Shown here piece by piece: positions 5,893 to 43,648 of a stretch of DNA of 64,000 nt. A program made the translations under genes and the position numbers. Positions within the stretch are counted from its first letter, which is position 1. Each line of letters opens with the position of its first letter. The notes under the pieces are model-generated. The model saw only the letters and a list, made by a program, of their open reading frames with translations, was not told where the DNA came from and did no database searches. The DNA is from Candidatus Methanosuratincola mesotaenarum. Lineage in GTDB: Archaea; Thermoproteota; Methanomethylicia; Methanomethylicales; Methanomethylicaceae. The DNA lies in contig JAULTC010000002.1 in NCBI GenBank assembly GCA_038801705.1, positions 323,127-387,126 of the forward strand. The letters are read 5' to 3'.

Positions 5893-5987
5893 TGGTGCTC
5901 TGGCCGGGATTTGAACCCGGGTCACTGGCTCTCTTCGCCTCTGGGCACGAAAGGCCAGTATACTTGACCGGACTATACGACCAGAGC
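5893..5987 (-). tRNA. tRNA-Glu(TTC) with 17-nt intron (5931-5947)
   Basis: Acceptor GCTCTGG/CCAGAGC, T-loop TTCAAAT, encoded CCA; intron at 37/38 forms a clean BHB (CUUU/GAAG central helix). Confidence 0.95.
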
Positions 5988-19317: not shown

Positions 19318-19424
19318 GCCGGGGTGGCTCAGGCTGGCTAGAGCGCCGGACTCATAATCTCAGACCTGGACAAGGCGCTCGATGGGAGATCCGGAAATCG
19401 CGGGTTCGAGTCCCGTCCCCGGCA
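19318..19424 (+). tRNA. tRNA-Met(CAT), elongator, with 32-nt intron (19357-19388)
   Basis: G1-C72 acceptor GCCGGGG/CCCCGGC; CUCA/UGGG BHB helix; CCA not encoded. Confidence 0.92.
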
Positions 19425-32571: not shown

Positions 32572-33054
32572 ATGGGACAGGTCTCACAACCCCTGAGGGT
32601 GATGTTTGTGGTGCTTACCGTGTCGACCGTGGGGATGGTCTCCCTCTTGGCAGTCTTCCTCAGCGCTCATCCTTATTTCAGCCCATTCCAGCCAGTAACG
32701 CTGCCGAAGGGATGGATCGACGATCAGACCTACGTCTCGGAGAACTTCACGATAGCGGCGGGGCAGACCGTAACGGACATCTTCGGATACGCAGGCGCGG
32801 GAGGGCAGTCAATAATGACCCTTGGGATCCAGCCACTCTTGATAAAGACTGCTGGTAATATCGACATAACTTTCAACGGGATACCTCTCGGAGAGACTTA
32901 CGTAAACCAAACGCTGGTTACCAACACATCCATAGCCTCCTGCTGCTTTGTCACGCTCATCCAGGCGGGCGTGGACAATGTTGTAGAGGTTGAATCGAAA
33001 GGGTTCGAGGGTGAATTCAGGTACATGATAATAATCCCGACGGGGGCACGATGA
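32572..33054 (+). CDS. Hypothetical secreted or membrane-anchored protein
   Basis: N-terminal TM helix, beta-rich domain with IASCCF; first gene of an apparent operon. Confidence 0.6.
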   Translation: MGQVSQPLRVMFVVLTVSTVGMVSLLAVFLSAHPYFSPFQPVTLPKGWIDDQTYVSENFTIAAGQTVTDIFGYAGAGGQSIMTLGIQPLLIKTAGNIDITFNGIPLGETYVNQTLVTNTSIASCCFVTLIQAGVDNVVEVESKGFEGEFRYMIIIPTGAR

Positions 33055-33378
33055 TTGAGGAAGGTGCTGGCTCTGCCTATCTTTGCGCTTGTTTTCACTA
33101 TCGCCCTCATCGCAGTCTCAGTCCATAGCGAGATTCAATGGTCCGGGAGAGAGTATGACAGAGCACTCAGAGAGAGCGTGGGCTTGCCGAGCATCGCGAT
33201 TGGGACGAACTACGAGGGGACCAGGAACCCGCTCATCGAGATCTTCGTTAGGTCCCTCTATGATATCCCAGGCGGCTACGATTACGTCGTATCCTCCAGT
33301 TTCATTGACACGCCGTTGAAACTCAAGGAATTCAGGGAGTCCATTCCTGGATTCAATTTCACCGCGATAAAGGGATGA
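33055..33378 (+). CDS. Hypothetical membrane-anchored protein
   Basis: Abuts both neighbours; N-terminal TM helix; RNPLIE...SLYDIPGGY. Confidence 0.6.
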   Translation: MRKVLALPIFALVFTIALIAVSVHSEIQWSGREYDRALRESVGLPSIAIGTNYEGTRNPLIEIFVRSLYDIPGGYDYVVSSSFIDTPLKLKEFRESIPGFNFTAIKG

Positions 33379-35234: not shown

Positions 35235-35666
35235 GAAGTCGTATGCAGCCACATCCACAGCCCACTATTATCCTGTTCTGCTTACGGCCTTCACATCTTC
35301 GGCAGCATAAGACTGTATTAATGGGCTTGTAGTTCCACTGGCAGTGCTGATCGAATATGTTGCACTCATTATCAACGGCCGCACCATCCATACACTCATC
35401 GCCGGCGGACCCACTGCCATCTAAGCTAAACCAGCGCGAACCTGGTAGGCTATCCATCATCTTGGGTGAACTTCAGGCGGGCGCAGTTTCTCGAGATTGT
35501 GAGGATCGCTAAGCAACCTCATTGTTGAAGCAGAACGCCTTCACCTTTCAGGGTAGGATAGTCCACTTACACAGAACTCCTGCAGCTCCTCTCAAAGCTA
35601 TGATTTTTTCCTGCCATTCTTGGAATCCTCTGGACTTTCCTTCAGCGGTTTCGTTGTTGCAACTAT

Positions 35667-37023
35667 GTTTTGTTTTCTCATCCTTTTCGGAGTCATTGAA
35701 ACGACAATTCATTACGCTGAACCTAGAGATGGCATTAGTTTCAGTCTTCTCATCCTTTTCGGAGTCATTGAAACAAGATTATAAAAAATCACGCACCAAG
35801 ATACTTAATGTTTCAGTCTTCTCATCCTTTTCGGAGTCATTGAAACTATTTTTGAGGAAGAGCGGCGATCGGTACCTCTTCCGTTTCAGTCTTCTCATCC
35901 TTTTCGGAGTCATTGAAACCTGGTTGGTTTAGGGGTTATTAAACACCAGACAAGAAGTTTCAGTCTTCTCATCCTTTTCGGAGTCATTGAAACAAGGTGA
36001 CATCTATACCAAGGAAGAGTGGAAGGCAAGTTTCAGTCTTCTCATCCTTTTCGGAGTCATTGAAACTGAAGGTATTGAAAGGGAGGAATGAAAGCCAGTA
36101 TGAGTTTCAGTCTTCTCATCCTTTTCGGAGTCATTGAAACTCAGGACACTCGCCGACGAGCTTGCAAAAGCTCGTGAGTTTCAGTCTTCTCATCCTTTTC
36201 GGAGTCATTGAAACCCCAAGGTCGGCGAGTGGCAGGACTTGGGGATATACAAGTTTCAGTCTTCTCATCCTTTTCGGAGTCATTGAAACTACGTATTCAT
36301 ATAGATACCCCTATAGAAAAATAATAAGTTTCAGTCTTCTCATCCTTTTCGGAGTCATTGAAACCGCCAGCCTTCATGGTGATCGCAATGCGCTGCACTG
36401 GTTTCAGTCTTCTCATCCTTTTCGGAGTCATTGAAACTAAAGAATTATTGTAATAATACCAAGTCGATAATAGTTTCAGTCTTCTCATCCTTTTCGGAGT
36501 CATTGAAACACCCATTCTATGGAATGGGCTGACTTACAATTATGAAGTTTCAGTCTTCTCATCCTTTTCGGAGTCATTGAAACGTTTTCACTTATCGAAC
36601 CAGATGTATCAAGTAAGATGTGTTTCAGTCTTCTCATCCTTTTCGGAGTCATTGAAACTTCCTATTTTTGCAAGTATAAAGCCAGCCCATTATAGTTTCA
36701 GTCTTCTCATCCTTTTCGGAGTCATTGAAACGAGGATCAGTTTTTTACTTCGAAGGACGAGGTGTAGTTTCAGTCTTCTCATCCTTTTCGGAGTCATTGA
36801 AACGCATGCTCGACGCAATGCGCAAAGAAGAGGGTGAAGTTTCAGTCTTCTCATCCTTTTCGGAGTCATTGAAACCCTAAATGCGGGGAATGGGAGTCCA
36901 TCGGAATTTACAAGTTTCAGTCTTCTCATCCTTTTCGGAGTCATTGAAACCTTCTAATCGTTCAGGTATGCTTATGAACAACTCATGTTTCAGTCTTCTC
37001 ATCCTTTTCGGAGTCATTGAAAC
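35667..37023 (-). CRISPR. CRISPR array: 19 repeats (37 nt), 18 spacers (35-38 nt)
   Basis: Repeat on + strand GTTTCAGTCTTCTCATCCTTTTCGGAGTCATTGAAAC; 18 exact copies plus one degenerate copy at 35667-35702. Minus-strand transcription is inferred from the degenerate end and the promoter-like right flank; both orientations end in TGAAAC, so strand is less certain than the array itself. Confidence 0.97.
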
Positions 37024-37125
37024 CGTAAGGATTTTTCCTCCTAATGCTAAAAAAGCTTTGTTCTCGACTTGTTTAGGCAGCCAAGCGTGAATGTCAAAAA
37101 ATCCCCCGTAGGCATATAAACAGGT
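37024..37125 (-). promoter_or_regulatory. Putative CRISPR leader and promoter
   Basis: AT-rich; on the minus strand AAAGCTTTTTTAG (BRE/TATA-like) lies about 25-35 nt before the first repeat. Confidence 0.55.
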
Positions 37126-38433
37126 TCACGCCCTCGAGGGCCATTTAATAAATTTCGAACTCTCCAAGAGTTTGTCTAGGTCATTAACCGCCACCTTGGC
37201 CAATGCCCTGACCTTCTTGTCCAGTTTTATGTACGTTCCCTCATCCACGGGCTGCAGACCATGTGCCAATATCGAAAGATTCCTGGTCTTGAGTAACTCC
37301 TTCATCTCATGATCCTCGCAGTACAGGCCACCCAGTTCATCCCCGAACGCATGCAGGAGCTCGTAATCTTTTTTCAAATCTATCTTCATCGGCTCAATAG
37401 ATGGAACCCTGCCCGCCCCCGCAGAGCTTTTTGCCTGTTCAGCCCCTCCCTTTGCCCCCACGGTCTCTTGTGCGGGTATCAGCTGAAGCCCCCACCAGCG
37501 GCTGCGCAGTTCTTCTGGTATCCGCCTTGGGTCGACTGAGGACGTTTCTATGTCGTATTTCTTTTTCAGGCGGTACTGGGCGGTAAGCTCTGCAGTCCTG
37601 TAGAGCCTGGCGACGGCATCGTCGTACTTCTTTTCTTCGGCTCCCCGCCGCTCTGAGTTGTTGATGAGGTCCGCGATCATGTACGGTTCAGGGTATCCCT
37701 TATCCGGGGACTGCGTTTTCTCGAGCTGTTCCATGAGCTTTCCGAGGAACTCCTTATTTTTTTCAGTCCCGGGGATTTTTAAAGTCGACAGCTTTCCATA
37801 AGCCTCTTTGTGGCGGAACTTGTCCCAGAGCGAGTACGCTTCCGCCATGGAGTCCAACGGCTTCATCATGTCTTCCAGGGTTTTGTCCCTGTGCTTGATC
37901 AGGATGCTATTTATTATGGATCTTGCAGCATCGTACTTGGTATTGTTGAAATAGCCCACGGCCATCATGTATTTATGTGCAGCCGCGGCTAAGTACGGCC
38001 TTAGCATGACGATTTGCTCTGTTCCCTGCTGGACCAATGCGGGGCTCCTCTTTCCGGATATGTAGCTCAGCGTGTCGGCTTCAAAGTTGACTCCCAGCGT
38101 GGCCAAGGCGGCTGAAATTGGCTTCGTCCCAGAAGTATAATCTATTGCGAGGTTGTCGTAGCTGTTTCTGAGGGCCTCTATTTTGAGAGAGAGGGATTCG
38201 TATATGCTATTGAAGTTGTCCGGATCATCCACCTCCATTATCTCGTTCTCGTAATCGAGCCCGTCCAGGATAAGGGGCAGCGTGACCTCTCTGCTTTCCT
38301 TGGTAACCACAAAGAAGACCTTTGTGGGGTTGTGCTGGGCAATGCTGAATTTTATCGCTTCTGCAAGGCTAGGCGTCCCGCTTCTGTCTTTACCTGTCCC
38401 GACCGAAATTACGAGCGCTTTAGATGTAGGCAT
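37126..38433 (-). CDS. CARF-HEPN ancillary protein (TIGR02710-like)
   Basis: LVISVGTG, DYTSGTKPISAAL CARF motif, YDDAVARLYR, RNLSILAHG (RX6H HEPN-type). Confidence 0.82.
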   Translation of the reverse strand: MPTSKALVISVGTGKDRSGTPSLAEAIKFSIAQHNPTKVFFVVTKESREVTLPLILDGLDYENEIMEVDDPDNFNSIYESLSLKIEALRNSYDNLAIDYTSGTKPISAALATLGVNFEADTLSYISGKRSPALVQQGTEQIVMLRPYLAAAAHKYMMAVGYFNNTKYDAARSIINSILIKHRDKTLEDMMKPLDSMAEAYSLWDKFRHKEAYGKLSTLKIPGTEKNKEFLGKLMEQLEKTQSPDKGYPEPYMIADLINNSERRGAEEKKYDDAVARLYRTAELTAQYRLKKKYDIETSSVDPRRIPEELRSRWWGLQLIPAQETVGAKGGAEQAKSSAGAGRVPSIEPMKIDLKKDYELLHAFGDELGGLYCEDHEMKELLKTRNLSILAHGLQPVDEGTYIKLDKKVRALAKVAVNDLDKLLESSKFIKWPSRA

Positions 38434-38578
38434 GTAAAAGCTCCTTTTGTATATCCTTTTCTTTTTCAGTATTTAAGTCCTCGACATCCCTTTGTCGGCG
38501 ACCGGGCAGTTTAGCCGAGGTTCCAGCCCGCGAGGCCCGGCCGACCCATTTGACCTTGAGGGCGCGTGCCGGATCCGG

Positions 38579-39751
38579 TCAGTTCACCCCCAAGGACTTT
38601 ATGCCGAGCTGACCGCAGCCGTGGGGTTTGTAGGCGCCTATGGCATAATACTCCAGCGCGGCAAGCCCGACCGCAAGCTCCCTGCTCCTTGCATTGGAAG
38701 CGAATTCAAAGACAGACCCAGCCGAAAAGGCCGCCTCTATGGCCCTCCGCCTGTCCGATCTAAGCGACCATCCGCTGAACGCCTCGCCTTCTACGGCGTA
38801 TGACTTGAGCGCCATCTCTGGTAACACTGGTTTACCTTCCTTCATTGCCATGGTGTAGGCCCTCCTCGCCCCTTCGAGTAGGGTCTGAGGGTCAAGGAGC
38901 TTTCCGTCGAGGATCATTGGCGAGAACACGTCTACCCTGAAGTGCGTCGTATCGATTTCATTCGCGCGGTCTTCCACCGTCCCCACCTCGACTGGTTCGA
39001 TCTTTAGGTCTTCCACTTCGACCTTGCCGAACCCGCGCGACTTCGACCCTCCGACCCCCTCGTCTGGCAGGGCACGAACGACCACATTACTTATGAGATT
39101 CAGGGTCGCTTCGTCTGCGCCGTATGCGATTGCCTCGAAACGGAACCTCGATCCCGCGGAAATGACCTCTGGAATGTGGATCGTCCCAGCCATGCCGCCC
39201 TGGGCCTGCACTTGGGCAGCCGCGCAAGTCGACCTGTCGACGGAGGTCATCACGACCCTGGAAACCCTGACGGGGGTGCGCTCGATCGACCCACACCGGT
39301 CGCAGCGGAACCCGCGGACAGCCTTCACCGACTCACCGCAGACACCGCACTTCTCGCCCGGCTCGAACGCCTCGAACGCCTTGCGGCACTGCGGGTTCAC
39401 GCAGCGGTAAAGCGACTTGGGCGCGGGCCTGAAGACGCCCCCGCACCCGAGGTGTATTGGATAAGCGTACCTGAAGAAGATCTTTGATGCCCTGCCGAAC
39501 TCCTCGCCGAAGAGTTGGGCGTATCTGCAGTCGTTGAAGTATTCGCACTTCTCGTGATCCGCCAAGGGGGTCTCGCGTTTGCAGACCAGCTTTATCAGCG
39601 AGGTGCCGACAGCGCCACGCATGACCGCGCCGTTAAGGTATGGCCTGGAATGCTTGATGACGCCTGTCCTCGATCCTGTGCCGACGTGAAGGGGGGTCGC
39701 TGCCCTGATCACCCCAACGATCCTATGGCAGTATGGGTCCATCGGCATCAC
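38579..39751 (-). CDS. RAMP Cas7-Cas5 fusion (Csx10-like) with Cys-rich insertion
   Basis: TPLHVG...YLNGAVMRGA; G-loop GVGGSKSRGFG at mid-protein; then a second RAMP (SPMIL, SGWS, AGSVF, IG...HGCG). Confidence 0.75.
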   Translation of the reverse strand: MMPMDPYCHRIVGVIRAATPLHVGTGSRTGVIKHSRPYLNGAVMRGAVGTSLIKLVCKRETPLADHEKCEYFNDCRYAQLFGEEFGRASKIFFRYAYPIHLGCGGVFRPAPKSLYRCVNPQCRKAFEAFEPGEKCGVCGESVKAVRGFRCDRCGSIERTPVRVSRVVMTSVDRSTCAAAQVQAQGGMAGTIHIPEVISAGSRFRFEAIAYGADEATLNLISNVVVRALPDEGVGGSKSRGFGKVEVEDLKIEPVEVGTVEDRANEIDTTHFRVDVFSPMILDGKLLDPQTLLEGARRAYTMAMKEGKPVLPEMALKSYAVEGEAFSGWSLRSDRRRAIEAAFSAGSVFEFASNARSRELAVGLAALEYYAIGAYKPHGCGQLGIKSLGVN

Positions 39752-40458
39752 TTGCTGAGCCAGTCCTTGCCCTGCACTACTTTTTCCTCCTCTTCGGCGA
39801 GGTAGTACTTTGCGGTCCGCTCTTTCACCGCGTCGATCTGGATCCTTGCCTTGCCGAACCCCCTCGACGAAGAGCCGCCTACTGACGAGTCTTCAACCGA
39901 CTTGAGGGCAGCCTTCAGGAGCCGGATCTCTTCGTCGGAAAGGTTCTCGCCGACGATCTCGAGCGCGAATTTTGTGCCTGCAGGTACCGCCTGTATCGTA
40001 TATAGCGCCCCACGGGCGACCGTACCCTTGTTCCTGTCGATCGCTATCCCTGTGCGCTCGAGCAGGGAATCCACCTTTCCGATCGGGAGCGCGTCCCGAA
40101 ACTTCACCTTGCTGGCAACCGAGATCCTTCCAGCCGTGCCAAAGATCCGACAGCAGATGCAAAAGTCCTCCGGATCGCTCTTGCGGCTCCCACACATGTT
40201 GTTGACATCCGGTGGCGTGCAGACCTCCATCTTCTGCCTTGCTATGCGCTCAGCCTCTGCCCTAACGCGGCCTTTTAGGGAGGACCCCGGTATGTACGGC
40301 TTCCCTTCCGGATCGGTTAAAACCGGGAGGTCCGGCTGGCCTATTTCTGCTTCGGACTTGCCAGATCCGATGTGTATCGGGGTCACGGCCTCCAGCGTGC
40401 CAGAGACGATGACCCTCTTTTCCAATTTCTCGAATACCAATTTTTTCACCTCCGTCAT
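39748..40458 (-). CDS. csm3: Cas7 backbone subunit (Csm3-like)
   Basis: TPIHIGSG...PDLPV (catalytic Asp position), PYIPGSSLKG, CICCRIFG, VGGSSSRGFG. Confidence 0.9.
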   Translation of the reverse strand: MTEVKKLVFEKLEKRVIVSGTLEAVTPIHIGSGKSEAEIGQPDLPVLTDPEGKPYIPGSSLKGRVRAEAERIARQKMEVCTPPDVNNMCGSRKSDPEDFCICCRIFGTAGRISVASKVKFRDALPIGKVDSLLERTGIAIDRNKGTVARGALYTIQAVPAGTKFALEIVGENLSDEEIRLLKAALKSVEDSSVGGSSSRGFGKARIQIDAVKERTAKYYLAEEEEKVVQGKDWLSK

Positions 40459-40994
40459 CTTTGAATCCAAACCTTTAGGTTGTAGCCAAACAATTCCTGC
40501 TTCTTCATCAGGGCATCCTTAATGTTCACAGCCAGGTCCCTAGGATTCCCTGCGAAACCTGGCACATGTACGTTAATACAAACTTCGTTCCCTTGGATCT
40601 GAGGGTCAATTTTGCCGCAAGTATACCCTGACTTCTCTACTTCTTTCCTGACCACGGGCTCTGCAATCGACGGTATTCTCATGAGTGGCTCCTTCTCGTA
40701 GTAGTCATAGAGCATGACCGCATACATGAGTATTTTCTGTAGCTTCGGCTTTTGCCCATCGTATTTGCTGATCAGTTCCGAAACATAAGCAAACGTATCC
40801 CTCCCGCTCAAGGTGCCTTCGAGAGTCCTAGAGAACTGCCTCTTCGCATAGGCATCGAGATATTCGATAGGCTTGACCTTAGACAGGCGGTACAGTTCAG
40901 TCAGCTGTTTCCTGCCCATCCCCGACTCCACGGCTTTCTTCGCAAGCGTTTCGCCTTCCATCTTCAGATCTTTCTCTTCAGACATTTGGATCAC
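40455..40994 (-). CDS. Putative Cas11 small subunit with extra C-terminal domain
   Basis: Lies between cas10 and csm3 with overlapping stop and start codons; helical N-terminal about 100 aa (QLTELYRL, YLDAYAKRQFSR, LMYAVMLYDY). Confidence 0.6.
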   Translation of the reverse strand: MIQMSEEKDLKMEGETLAKKAVESGMGRKQLTELYRLSKVKPIEYLDAYAKRQFSRTLEGTLSGRDTFAYVSELISKYDGQKPKLQKILMYAVMLYDYYEKEPLMRIPSIAEPVVRKEVEKSGYTCGKIDPQIQGNEVCINVHVPGFAGNPRDLAVNIKDALMKKQELFGYNLKVWIQR

Positions 40995-42877
40995 CTTGAA
41001 AGATTATACAGTGAAAACGCGTCCTTGATCAGACCGGAGCCGATCGCGGAAAGGATCCGCTCGCCCTCGCTCCAGCTTATAGTGCCCCTCCCCATCCGGC
41101 TTTTCAGGATGGCTTCTGCCATGACCGGGTTTTTAGCGTTGACCGTAGCGATGTTCCTGAGCTGGCCCGAGGCGACGCCGCCCTTCTCCATCGAGGCAGC
41201 CAAATCGATCAGTTCCTTCAGTTCGTCCCAGCTCCTCGAATCGAATCTGTAGAGGCTTTCCTCGTCTGCGGACGTGCTACCAAGGATCGCGAAAGCAACC
41301 CTGTTCTTCCCCTCTTCCTTTGCCCTCTGGAGGAGCCTAGCGGAAGATTCAAGGCCTACGTAGATTGGGAGCTGATACTGAAACATAGAGACGCCCGCAG
41401 ACATCGTGCACGCGCCCGCCGTAGCCTCGTTGAACTTATGCGCGACCTCCATAGCTGTCTCGAGGGCTACTTGGCCCGGGACCAAGGCGAGCAGGTCGTC
41501 CCCACCGGCAAAGACTATGCTGTTCGAAGTCGCACGGCGCGAGATCACCGGTCCGAATTCCTGTTCGCAGGTCCTGTGTATCAGACCGCTGACGGTCGAG
41601 ACCCTCGAAGGCGTGCTCGCTTTCCCAAGTTCCTTAAAGACCTTCCCCGCAAAGACCTGCCCTATACGGTCACCGTCTGCCCTGATGCAGCCCACGAGGT
41701 TGTTCTTGTCTTTGAGGTCGTCCAGCCAGATCCCTTTCCCCTTCTGCCGCATTTCCCAGCAGACGTCGCATAGCCTTTCAGGCCTGGGCGAAGCGTCGAT
41801 CGGCAGTATCCTTAGGTCGTCGTCCTTCGAAGCTTGGCGGGACCCGCAGACGTCGCAGGCTTCAGCCCCCTCAGGCACATCGATCCTCGGCAGGTGGATC
41901 CTCTTCCCCTTCTCTATGCGCATATTTGCCATCGCCTTTTCCCAGAGGCTGCCAAAGTTGCGCATGAAGGCATTCCCATCCGCTGTGATGCTGGCGACGG
42001 TCATTGTTGCCCTGCCCGAGGTGGCTTCCTCGAAGCTCTGCTTCATGGTTTCCATAACCTCTTCTTTGCGCGATGTAGGCGAAAGTACGAGGGCACTGCC
42101 CCCCGCAGCGAACAGGACGCACTCTGGCCCCAGCTTCTCTGCCATGGCGTTTCTAACTTCTTCCGTTGCATATTTGATGAGCGCGCTCCTTGAATTCAGG
42201 TCGGGGAGGCGCTTTGATTCATTGATGAACCCAGAGATCCGGTCCGCATCCCCGCTAATGAGGGCAAAATTATAACAGCTCAAGTTTGTGCCGTTCGACC
42301 CATCAAGGTAAATGCAGGTCGAAAAAGCTGCAGTCAGTTTGAGATGATCCCACAGCGAAACATCGTTATTCGGCTTTCTGGTGTCCGCAGGAACTTTGTG
42401 GAGCCTGGATTTCCTGAGCGCCTCAAAGACCTTGGTGTAGCAACCCTTCGGATCTTTCCTGAGCTCGCCCTCAAGACTCCCAAGGCTAGCGGCTATCTCC
42501 TGGGAAATATAAGCCAAATCCCGTGCTTCGAGTTTTCCGGCGGTCTTGTCCTTAGAGAGTATGTGAGCCAACTCTATAGGCGGGGTCGGAAGCGGGGTGC
42601 CGGGCATATGGGCTTCTGACCTGTCAGATCCGGCTGCAATGTTGTCCGCTAGAGCGATTATCCACTGCAAACGGTTCTCCGGGTGATACATTTCAGGATA
42701 AGAAGGCCCCGTGTGGTGCTTGCACGCATTTTCAGCTATTTCTTCACCGAGGCACCTCTTGACGAATGATCGGGTGTATGAAACATGCTTTGACCACCCT
42801 TCTCTGTTGGCCCAGCACTCCAGCTTGCCTATATCGTGCAGCAGGGCTGAAAGCCGGACCGTTTCAAGCTCGCTCAT
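40991..42877 (-). CDS. cas10: Cas10 (HD nuclease plus Palm/cyclase), compact 628 aa
   Basis: LLHDIGK, ADNIAAGSDR, VSLWDHLK, FAAGGS, CDVC/CDVC Zn finger, ADGD, FAGGDDLL. Confidence 0.92.
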   Translation of the reverse strand: MSELETVRLSALLHDIGKLECWANREGWSKHVSYTRSFVKRCLGEEIAENACKHHTGPSYPEMYHPENRLQWIIALADNIAAGSDRSEAHMPGTPLPTPPIELAHILSKDKTAGKLEARDLAYISQEIAASLGSLEGELRKDPKGCYTKVFEALRKSRLHKVPADTRKPNNDVSLWDHLKLTAAFSTCIYLDGSNGTNLSCYNFALISGDADRISGFINESKRLPDLNSRSALIKYATEEVRNAMAEKLGPECVLFAAGGSALVLSPTSRKEEVMETMKQSFEEATSGRATMTVASITADGNAFMRNFGSLWEKAMANMRIEKGKRIHLPRIDVPEGAEACDVCGSRQASKDDDLRILPIDASPRPERLCDVCWEMRQKGKGIWLDDLKDKNNLVGCIRADGDRIGQVFAGKVFKELGKASTPSRVSTVSGLIHRTCEQEFGPVISRRATSNSIVFAGGDDLLALVPGQVALETAMEVAHKFNEATAGACTMSAGVSMFQYQLPIYVGLESSARLLQRAKEEGKNRVAFAILGSTSADEESLYRFDSRSWDELKELIDLAASMEKGGVASGQLRNIATVNAKNPVMAEAILKSRMGRGTISWSEGERILSAIGSGLIKDAFSLYNLSR

Positions 42878-43093: not shown

Positions 43094-43648
43094 ATGTTTT
43101 TGGCAAGGAAGCAGAACAGCTTTTACGCTTATGTATGCATGGCGATAACCCTCGTTGTTCTCCTTGCAATAGCGGTTGTGGCGTTCAACTACATCGCCCC
43201 GGGGCTTTCAGGCATTGATGTCGGCGCCGGGCAGCAGGAGCCCGGACTCGTGCCGGTGAAGATAGTCAACAAGCCAACCCTGACAATAACGGCCATGGAC
43301 CGCAACGGCAACATCATCAGCGACTCGGGCCCGTTCAACATGATCGGCCTCGCGGGCGCCCAGTTCACGGTCAACGTCGTCAACACCGAAGCCGACAGCG
43401 GCTGGAATGCCACCTGCAGCCCGATTGACAGGGCCAACCTCGGCCTGGCGGCAGTGACGACACCCAGCAGAACTCCTGCAGCCCCTTCTTTGAGTAGGGC
43501 CGAGGCGGAGGAGGCGTTTGTCATCTTCGGTCAGTTGCTCCATCAGTTGCCACACGAGCCTGCCCCTCCGGCGACCGCGCCGGCAGTCCGTTGCGGCATG
43601 AGACACATGACCGCCAAGGCAAGGCGCTACTTGTTGTGGGCTTTGTAG
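43094..43648 (+). CDS. Hypothetical membrane-anchored protein, possibly a fragment
   Basis: N-terminal TM helix and plausible beta-rich sequence up to about 43465; low-complexity tail afterwards. Confidence 0.35.

Follow-up and report, generated by a model that had tools for sequence, protein, structure and literature searches.

Paired spacers of an archaeal type III CRISPR array suggest repeated sampling of one region in related mobile elements

The DNA studied here is a window of 64,000 nucleotides (nt) from Candidatus Methanosuratincola mesotaenarum (GenBank assembly GCA_038801705.1, contig JAULTC010000002.1, forward-strand positions 323,127 to 387,126), and all positions below are counted from its first letter. 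It contains a CRISPR array at 35666-37023, probably transcribed from the - strand, in which 19 repeats, each 37 nt long, alternate with 18 spacers of 35-38 nt. Two of the spacers, numbers 8 and 17, resemble each other over their full length, and the pattern of their differences suggests that they were acquired separately, at one and the same site in two homologous coding sequences that have diverged.

On the + strand the repeat reads GTTTCAGTCTTCTCATCCTTTTCGGAGTCATTGAAAC. Eighteen of the 19 copies are identical. The only exception is the degenerate terminal repeat at 35666-35702 (no strand assigned), which has five mismatches, all within the outer 9 nt, and marks the trailer, i.e. the oldest, end of the array. 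The identical direct repeats, the unique spacers of uniform length and the adjoining cas genes, whose operon ends 102 nt away, identify the locus as a CRISPR array. None of the Rfam CRISPR-DR families matches the repeat, so none is available to settle its orientation. The probable leader (37024-37125, - strand; putative in position and orientation) lies between the csm6 stop codon and the first repeat, and a TATA-like archaeal TTTATATG is found within it at 37113-37120 on the - strand. Spurious open reading frames (ORFs) of 84-136 amino acids (aa) cross the array at 36162-36434, 36577-36837, 36690-36944 and 35522-35932. One array-spanning spurious product (72 aa) is catalogued in a public protein collection and is therefore usable for finding related arrays.

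Directly to the right of the array is a type III operon on the - strand, with the array downstream of it. The operon is compact (37126-42877), with cas10, a small subunit, one Cas7, one Cas5-like protein and a CARF-HEPN protein. Cas10 (40991-42877, - strand) matches TIGR02578 with 230 bits against a cut-off of 170, and its translation contains the HD motif LLHDIGK, zinc-finger cysteines and the GGDD motif FAGGDDLL. The next gene (40455-40994, - strand) encodes a protein of 179 aa, a putative small subunit by its position, which no Pfam or NCBIfam model matches. It is followed by a repeat-associated mysterious protein (RAMP) of the Cas7 family (Csx7/Csm3; 39748-40470, - strand; Csx7 model 148.5 bits, cut-off 108) and a RAMP protein with a weak Csx10-like, Cas5-group match (38579-39751, - strand; TIGR02674 50 bits, below the cut-off of 177). 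The gene closest to the array encodes a CARF-HEPN effector that matches the Csm6/TIGR02710 family (37126-38433, - strand). Cas10 with both HD and GGDD motifs, together with a Cas7-type RAMP backbone subunit, places the operon in type III, while Csx10, the marker of subtype III-D, is represented only by the below-cut-off match. Among the main ORFs up to ~15 kb to the left and right, no cas1, cas2, cas3, cas4, cas6 or reverse transcriptase gene was found; the scan against family models covered about two-thirds of the long ORFs there. The genes for adaptation are probably encoded in another part of the genome.

Spacer 8 (36215-36252, + strand) and spacer 17 (36876-36913, + strand) are both 38 nt long and align without gaps at offset 0, with 25 of 38 positions identical. 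They translate in the same frame as PKVGEWQDLGIY and PKCGEWESIGIY, respectively, and 7 of the 13 mismatches are at third codon positions. These features had been described in an earlier sequence-only reading of the locus, and the coordinates, sequences, lengths, identity and translations were all confirmed. In 8 of the 12 codons the residue is the same. Six of these codons differ synonymously; the two unchanged ones are TAC and TGG, the latter being without a synonym. The sole stop-free frame with conserved residues is on the + strand.

To evaluate the resemblance, the best ungapped match among the 153 spacer pairs, on both strands and at all offsets, was compared with mononucleotide shuffles. 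The best match in shuffled arrays had a mean of 18.8, and the observed 25 matches were attained in 1 of 1000 shuffled arrays (family-wise P about 0.001). The similarity is thus significant in the all-versus-all test on which the sequence-only reading had staked it. For the pair alone, at offset 0 and with dinucleotide-preserving shuffles, the single-test P is 2e-5. Using a composition-corrected score over all offsets and both strands, 8/17 is the sole pair above the shuffled 95th percentile (6.45 vs 4.7).

The differences between the two spacers are also structured by codon. The enrichment of mismatches at third positions has P = 0.04, and 13 random substitutions keep at least 8 of the 12 residues in 0.24% of trials in frame 0. 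The proposal that the pair is not a duplicated spacer that has mutated stands, as the codon pattern and the 18 identical repeats exclude such slow decay. The differences follow the evolution of the targets, not decay within the array. The related proposal of protein-level divergence of the targets is supported by the synonymous changes and by the third-position excess, although the codon evidence taken alone is weaker. We favour the reading that spacers 8 and 17 were acquired in two events, from homologous coding sequences that had diverged.

The similarity extends to the spacers on either side of the pair, which correspond in the same order. Spacer 7 (36141-36177, + strand) matches spacer 16 (36804-36838, + strand) at 18 of 34 positions with an offset of 3, and spacer 9 (36290-36327, + strand) matches spacer 18 (36951-36986, + strand, adjoining the probable leader) at 19 of 36 positions with offset 0. 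The 9/18 similarity is a sharp peak at that offset (P = 0.001). In the composition-corrected scores at near-zero offsets, 8/17, 7/16 and 9/18 rank 1st, 2nd and 4th of the 153 pairs, and the chance that two random disjoint pairs both score as high as 7/16 and 9/18 is 5e-4. We also permuted the order of the spacers and counted similar pairs that have similar neighbours. This diagonal adjacency has P = 0.005, 0.0007, 0.01 and 0.02 for the top 5, 7, 10 and 15 pairs, and P = 0.01 in a threshold-free version of the test.

When spacer 7, one additional nt and spacers 8 and 9 are joined, they align without gaps to spacers 16, 17 and 18 with 62 of 109 positions identical, and the block boundaries coincide to within 0-3 nt each. 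The mismatches between 8+9 and 17+18 are distributed over the codon positions as 9/5/16 (P = 0.0018 in the chosen frame). On these statistical grounds, spacers 7-8-9 and 16-17-18 look like two collinear blocks covering ~110 nt, with spacer 8 at the centre of the older block and spacer 17 at the centre of the leader-proximal one. The sequence-only reading had described a single site targeted twice. The pair at that site is real, but the view is incomplete, as the flanking spacers 7/16 and 9/18 are similar in the same order, and the sampled unit looks like a region of ~110 nt taken several times.

Spacers 12 and 13 (36510-36621, + strand) are a weaker, possible third block, without significance when taken alone. 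With offset 0, spacer 12 agrees with spacer 8 and with spacer 17 at 17 of 37 positions each, and spacer 13 matches spacer 9 at 18 of 35 positions with offset 3. In these two, the same region may have been sampled a third time, in a relative that is more distant. Spacer 12 reads THSMEWADLQL*, in which EW.DL is shared with spacer 8 at the same offset. Spacers 10 (36365-36400) and 16 share the 10-nt word CGCAATGCGC and match at 16 of 27 positions with an offset of 9; this is within the all-offset noise, though spacer 10 directly follows the older block.

Transcription of the array from the - strand is favoured with reasonable confidence, on several grounds. The degenerate repeat at the left end marks the trailer and puts the leader at 37024-37125, the TATA-like TTTATATG is on the leader side, and the cas operon runs in the same direction. 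Further, the + strand of the spacers is purine-rich like the sense strands of the host, and it carries the only conserved open frame of spacers 8 and 17. The purine fraction of the spacers on the + strand is 0.565 (P = 0.012) and exceeds 0.5 in 13 of 18 spacers; in the comparison set, the sense strands of host genes, it is 0.54, and 69% of 37-nt windows exceed 0.5. A sigma-70 promoter scan was uninformative, the host being archaeal. Type III interference is guided by RNA, and the CRISPR RNAs (crRNAs) must be complementary to the target transcript. Transcribed from the - strand, the crRNAs would be antisense to the putative reading frame, as type III targeting needs. The sequence-only reading had not considered this strand logic of the adjoining type III system. 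The 5' tag of the crRNAs would be ACUGAAAC or AUUGAAAC, depending on their strand.

The spacer ends are not random. On the + strand the 3' base is A in 13 of 18 spacers (P = 8e-4) and the last two bases are AA in 7 of 18, while the 5' end is unbiased. If the array is transcribed from the - strand, the A-biased end is the leader-proximal end. In type I systems the leader-proximal end of a spacer carries the base next to the protospacer adjacent motif (PAM). The terminal A may be such a PAM-derived base or a base preferred in cleavage. The pattern would fit uptake whose register is set by a sequence motif and slips now and then by 1-2 nt, and the boundary differences of 0-3 nt in 7/16 and 9/18 are of the size of such slippage. 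The PAM-fixed register suggested in the sequence-only reading is therefore plausible from the 3' A bias; the PAM itself is conjectural.

Several features concern the question of whether the spacers of a block were adjacent in their target. Spacers 7 and 8 are linked by a perfect inverted repeat of 11 nt, CACTCGCCGAC / GTCGGCGAGTG (positions 7-17 of each). It is the longest word common to any pair of spacers, with a null of about 0.01 for adjacent pairs, and it is partly retained in spacers 16 and 17 with six shared pairs, two of them compensatory. A 10-nt palindrome, AATACGTATT, arises only across the junction of spacers 8 and 9. The older target, reconstructed as spacer 7, 1 nt and spacers 8+9, folds with z = -4.1, while the reconstruction of the newer target has no excess structure (z = +0.4), and the folding gain from joining spacers 7 and 8 ranks just 37th of 306. 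Spacers 7 and 8 are the two most structured spacers of the array, and spacer 7 contains a perfect 8-bp hairpin, ACGAGCTT-GCAA-AAGCTCGT. A conserved hairpin as the cause of a hot spot was rejected, as strong structure is confined to the older block and joining spacers brings no remarkable gain in folding. The continuity of the reading frame across abutted spacers at first looked striking and was dropped when it proved no better than in shuffled spacer orders. Adjacency of the tiles in the target is plausible, and their exact contiguity is conjectural.

A search for the protospacers in viral, metagenome, phage, plasmid and protein collections, as advised in the sequence-only reading, found none. 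A codon-degenerate pattern for P-K-x-G-E-W-x3-G-I-Y gave 0 matches in viral contigs and 6 in metagenome contigs, three of which are one identical sequence; we estimate that roughly ten or more matches are expected by chance in a metagenome collection of this size. The matches in EF-G-like and HsdS-like genes were rejected, both being out of frame, and two others were judged to be chance without a frame check. With the whole array as query, blastn against phages and plasmids gave nothing better than an E of about 4, and tblastn of the concatenated peptides against the same sequences gave nothing. A peptide word search of 5.8 billion proteins yielded no candidate. A joined query of all spacer translations found nothing at E <= 10, a limit that even a perfect 12-residue match may narrowly miss with a query of such length. 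No match at all came from the hairpin arms, from a pattern that spans the junction or from wobble-tolerant patterns for spacers 16, 7 and 5, the peptide search of the PDB gave an E of 1.4 or worse, and no self-target was found within the 64-kb window.

Two kinds of candidates surfaced from relaxed patterns. Phage lysins of the NlpC/P60 family (~145 aa) have a conserved LPRxGDWxAxGLY after the catalytic Cys, and 8 of the 18 relaxed-motif matches are in this family. They were rejected as the target since the free positions mismatch and the count is, by our estimate, about that of chance. About eight unrelated proteins with GEWxxxGIYN, from relaxed motif scans, are artefacts that share only the positions forced by the pattern.

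Comparison with arrays of related strains, also suggested in the sequence-only reading, was not productive, as it brought no related array to light. Neither the exact repeat nor a relative of Cas10 was found in the genome collection, and words from the spurious ORFs derived from the repeat matched only the window's own ORF. The same locus is present in two public Logan contigs, SRR25293830 and SRR17347038. In the former a single spacer, between the first repeat and the last, is all that is left of the array; this collapse is taken to be an assembly artefact. The latter ends ~530 bp past the ABC gene, by coordinates just inside the array.

The genes that flank the CRISPR-Cas locus are housekeeping genes: ABC transporters, an archaeal-type glutamate synthase, an ammonium transporter and a LeuC-like protein. 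Three ORFs beside the locus (43094-43648 and 32572-33378; 184, 160 and 107 aa) have no NCBIfam match, and those of 160 and 107 aa also lack a Pfam match. Elsewhere in the window, the tRNA genes at 5893-5987 (92-95 nt) and 19318-19424 (107 nt, detected by Rfam only) are too long for uninterrupted tRNAs, which indicates introns and an archaeal host.

The explanation we favour, with a probability of about two in three, is that spacers 8 and 17 result from separate acquisitions at the same position of two diverged homologous coding sequences, within collinear three-spacer blocks taken from related mobile elements. The targets would have a DNA identity of ~66% and 8 of 12 residues in common, and would lie in elements absent from every collection searched. 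Spacers 8 and 17 would be the central members of their blocks, each block sampling the same ~110-nt region, and the array would have been immunised at least twice, possibly three times if spacers 12-13 are counted, against variants of one element family. It would serve the type III effector encoded beside it, with its Cas10 (HD, GGDD), Csx7/Csm3 RAMP, Csx10-like RAMP and CARF-HEPN protein, and crRNAs from the - strand would be antisense to the predicted frame. The older crRNA, with 13 of 38 positions mismatched, would probably not cover the newer variant, so that the second spacer would renew immunity. In the same way, the newer spacers may restore coverage that was probably lost by the older ones, which are 34-47% mismatched.

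The register could be set by a motif that is read by a Cas1-Cas2(-Cas4) module encoded elsewhere. The focus on one region may reflect a local uptake hot spot, selection for a well-expressed transcript, or both; candidate causes of the choice are a limited number of usable sites with the motif, an uptake hot spot at structured or nicked DNA, and a strongly expressed transcript. The sequence-only reading had proposed a pair of related elements, a PAM and causes for the hot spot; here, too, all three are inferred from the array.

Several points weigh against this explanation. When any of the six frames may be chosen, random substitutions retain as many residues in 4.6% of trials, so after correction for the choice of frame the codon test has a P of only about 0.05, and the codon evidence is real but modest. 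The similarities of the neighbouring spacers are within noise once all offsets and both strands are allowed; their significance holds only under the hypothesis of the same sites in the same order, which was formed after the pattern at a lag of nine spacers had been seen. Spacer 18 has an in-frame TAA two codons past the junction, and the coding reading is thus not clean through the third tile, which is probably the end of a gene plus downstream sequence. On the strand, the repeat in + orientation ends in the canonical ATTGAAAC tag and in - orientation in ACTGAAAC. The ATTGAAAC tag would argue for + strand transcription, and the crRNAs would then be sense to the putative frame. The identical end points would be harder to explain, published type III adaptation being PAM-independent and near-random, unless a type I-like module acts in trans. 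Finally, as no protospacer was found, the homology of the targets is deduced from 38 nt, or from 74-109 nt with the neighbours.

Of the other explanations, the likeliest is coupled or processive uptake, in which a stretch of ~110 nt from the invader is cut at fixed points into three contiguous tiles that are integrated in order. The boundaries would then be set by the distance to a defined end, nick or hairpin instead of by a PAM beside every site, and the process would have been repeated independently for two, perhaps three, diverged relatives of one element. This would agree with the internal boundaries, which coincide at both ends of 8/17 and at the left end of 9/18 while the outer ends vary by 2-3 nt, and with the same order and orientation of both blocks. 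The ungapped alignment of the joined blocks, the junction codons AA|T and AA|C, both Asn, the inverted repeat that joins spacers 7 and 8 and the palindrome that exists only across the 8/9 junction point the same way. However, one block needs an assumed 1-nt gap, neither the frame continuity nor the folding gain stands out from the controls, the junction-spanning pattern search found nothing, and no adaptation mechanism of such a kind is known. To our knowledge, no described Cas1-Cas2 system shows ordered multi-spacer uptake, and we regard this explanation as possible but rather unlikely. A single mobile element with a diverged duplication, so that both blocks come from paralogous copies, is less likely again. 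The array does not separate this reading from that of two elements, and tandem copies would give the same order and orientation. Nevertheless, the six unrelated spacers (10-15) between the blocks imply separate episodes of acquisition, and the third-position GC content differs (10/12 vs 7/12), a weak hint of different genomic backgrounds.

Recombination between arrays, by which blocks acquired in different host lineages were later joined between identical repeats, is doubtful to a slightly greater degree. Exchange of spacer blocks between Thermus strains is documented (PMC6452258), and adaptation genes were not found among the window ORFs screened. Still, the same sites would have been sampled twice, so that recombination explains only why the blocks reside together, and no related array was found for comparison. 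The lag of exactly nine units, half of the array, at which the blocks are collinear could suggest that a segment of the array was duplicated in place and that its spacers then drifted. This is already contradicted, and very improbable: 18 repeats are identical while the spacers differ by 34-47% (identity 53-66%), the differences concentrate at third codon positions with six synonymous codon changes, and the pairs 1/10 to 6/15 have no similarity. Equally improbable is a chance resemblance of unrelated spacers. Sliding spacers over a few hundred kb of unrelated DNA does often give 25 matches in 38, but the comparison space within one array is small, as the family-wise P reflects, and the identical end points, codon-structured differences and matching neighbours also count against chance.

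The core of the favoured explanation, separate acquisitions from homologous positions, is a further example of a known phenomenon, in which one locus of related mobile elements is sampled recurrently. Natural Thermus arrays (PMC6452258) and laboratory experiments with the type I-C system of Legionella (PMC5071653) document independent acquisitions from one locus, and there too separate events converge on protospacers that are the same or overlap. The spacers described there are copies of one sequence, either identical or overlapping, and usually belong to different arrays or clones. Here, in contrast, they are in one array, their targets are 34% apart, and the end points are identical with matching neighbours in order. 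The combination of the same three sites, the same order, shared internal boundaries and two diverged targets is supported statistically; it is unusual, and we have not seen it described.

In published work on type III adaptation, spacers are taken up independently of a PAM and almost at random (PMC7515739, PMC8860593). In the S. thermophilus type III-A system, uptake hot spots are found at hairpin-forming DNA such as sso, oriT and attenuators (PMC8860593). The narrow uptake region is a likeness, as is the strong structure of the older target here. However, that uptake is independent of PAM and orientation and lacks fixed end points, unlike this array, and here the second target has no excess structure and cas1/cas2 were not found nearby. 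In T. thermophilus, the surviving type III spacers cluster in early or strongly transcribed phage regions and are complementary to transcripts (PMC7515739). Similarly, the + strand here looks like the sense strand for most spacers, but the uptake in that study was random and without repeated spacers, and neither identical boundaries nor a kept order would be predicted from it.

Two further systems bear on a fixed register or a return to an old site. Little is known of the way in which type III-associated arrays obtain their spacers in nature, above all in archaea; laboratory studies report near-random, PAM-free uptake followed by selection. In Pyrococcus furiosus, Shiimori and colleagues are said to have described in 2018 Cas4-Cas1-Cas2 modules that define PAM and length and serve archaeal arrays of both type I and type III. 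With such a module the register of spacers used by a type III effector would be fixed and the A bias of one end explained; none was found among the window ORFs screened. In the primed adaptation of type I systems, reportedly from the 2014 work of Fineran and colleagues and related studies, an old, mismatched spacer can set off bursts of acquisition from that element, with the new spacers clustered around the old site, and 13 mismatches is said to be about the tolerance. Priming needs a type I interference complex and Cas3, and yields PAM-flanked sites scattered around the primer. Neither a type I interference module nor the cas1-cas2 pair that priming would also require was found among the window ORFs screened, and re-sampling of the same three sites in order, as in this array, is not a feature of primed adaptation.

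If only the pair 8/17 is real, the array records ordinary renewal of immunity against an invader that has drifted. The paired spacers also provide a short protein and DNA signature with which the element could be found in the source samples. If the blocks are real, up to 8 of the 18 spacers would come from one ~110-nt region of two or three diverged relatives, with boundaries and order kept, which would be very focused sampling in the wild, and if their tiles are contiguous they would represent ordered multi-spacer uptake. Such focus would point to a vulnerable or uptake-prone feature of the mobile element family.

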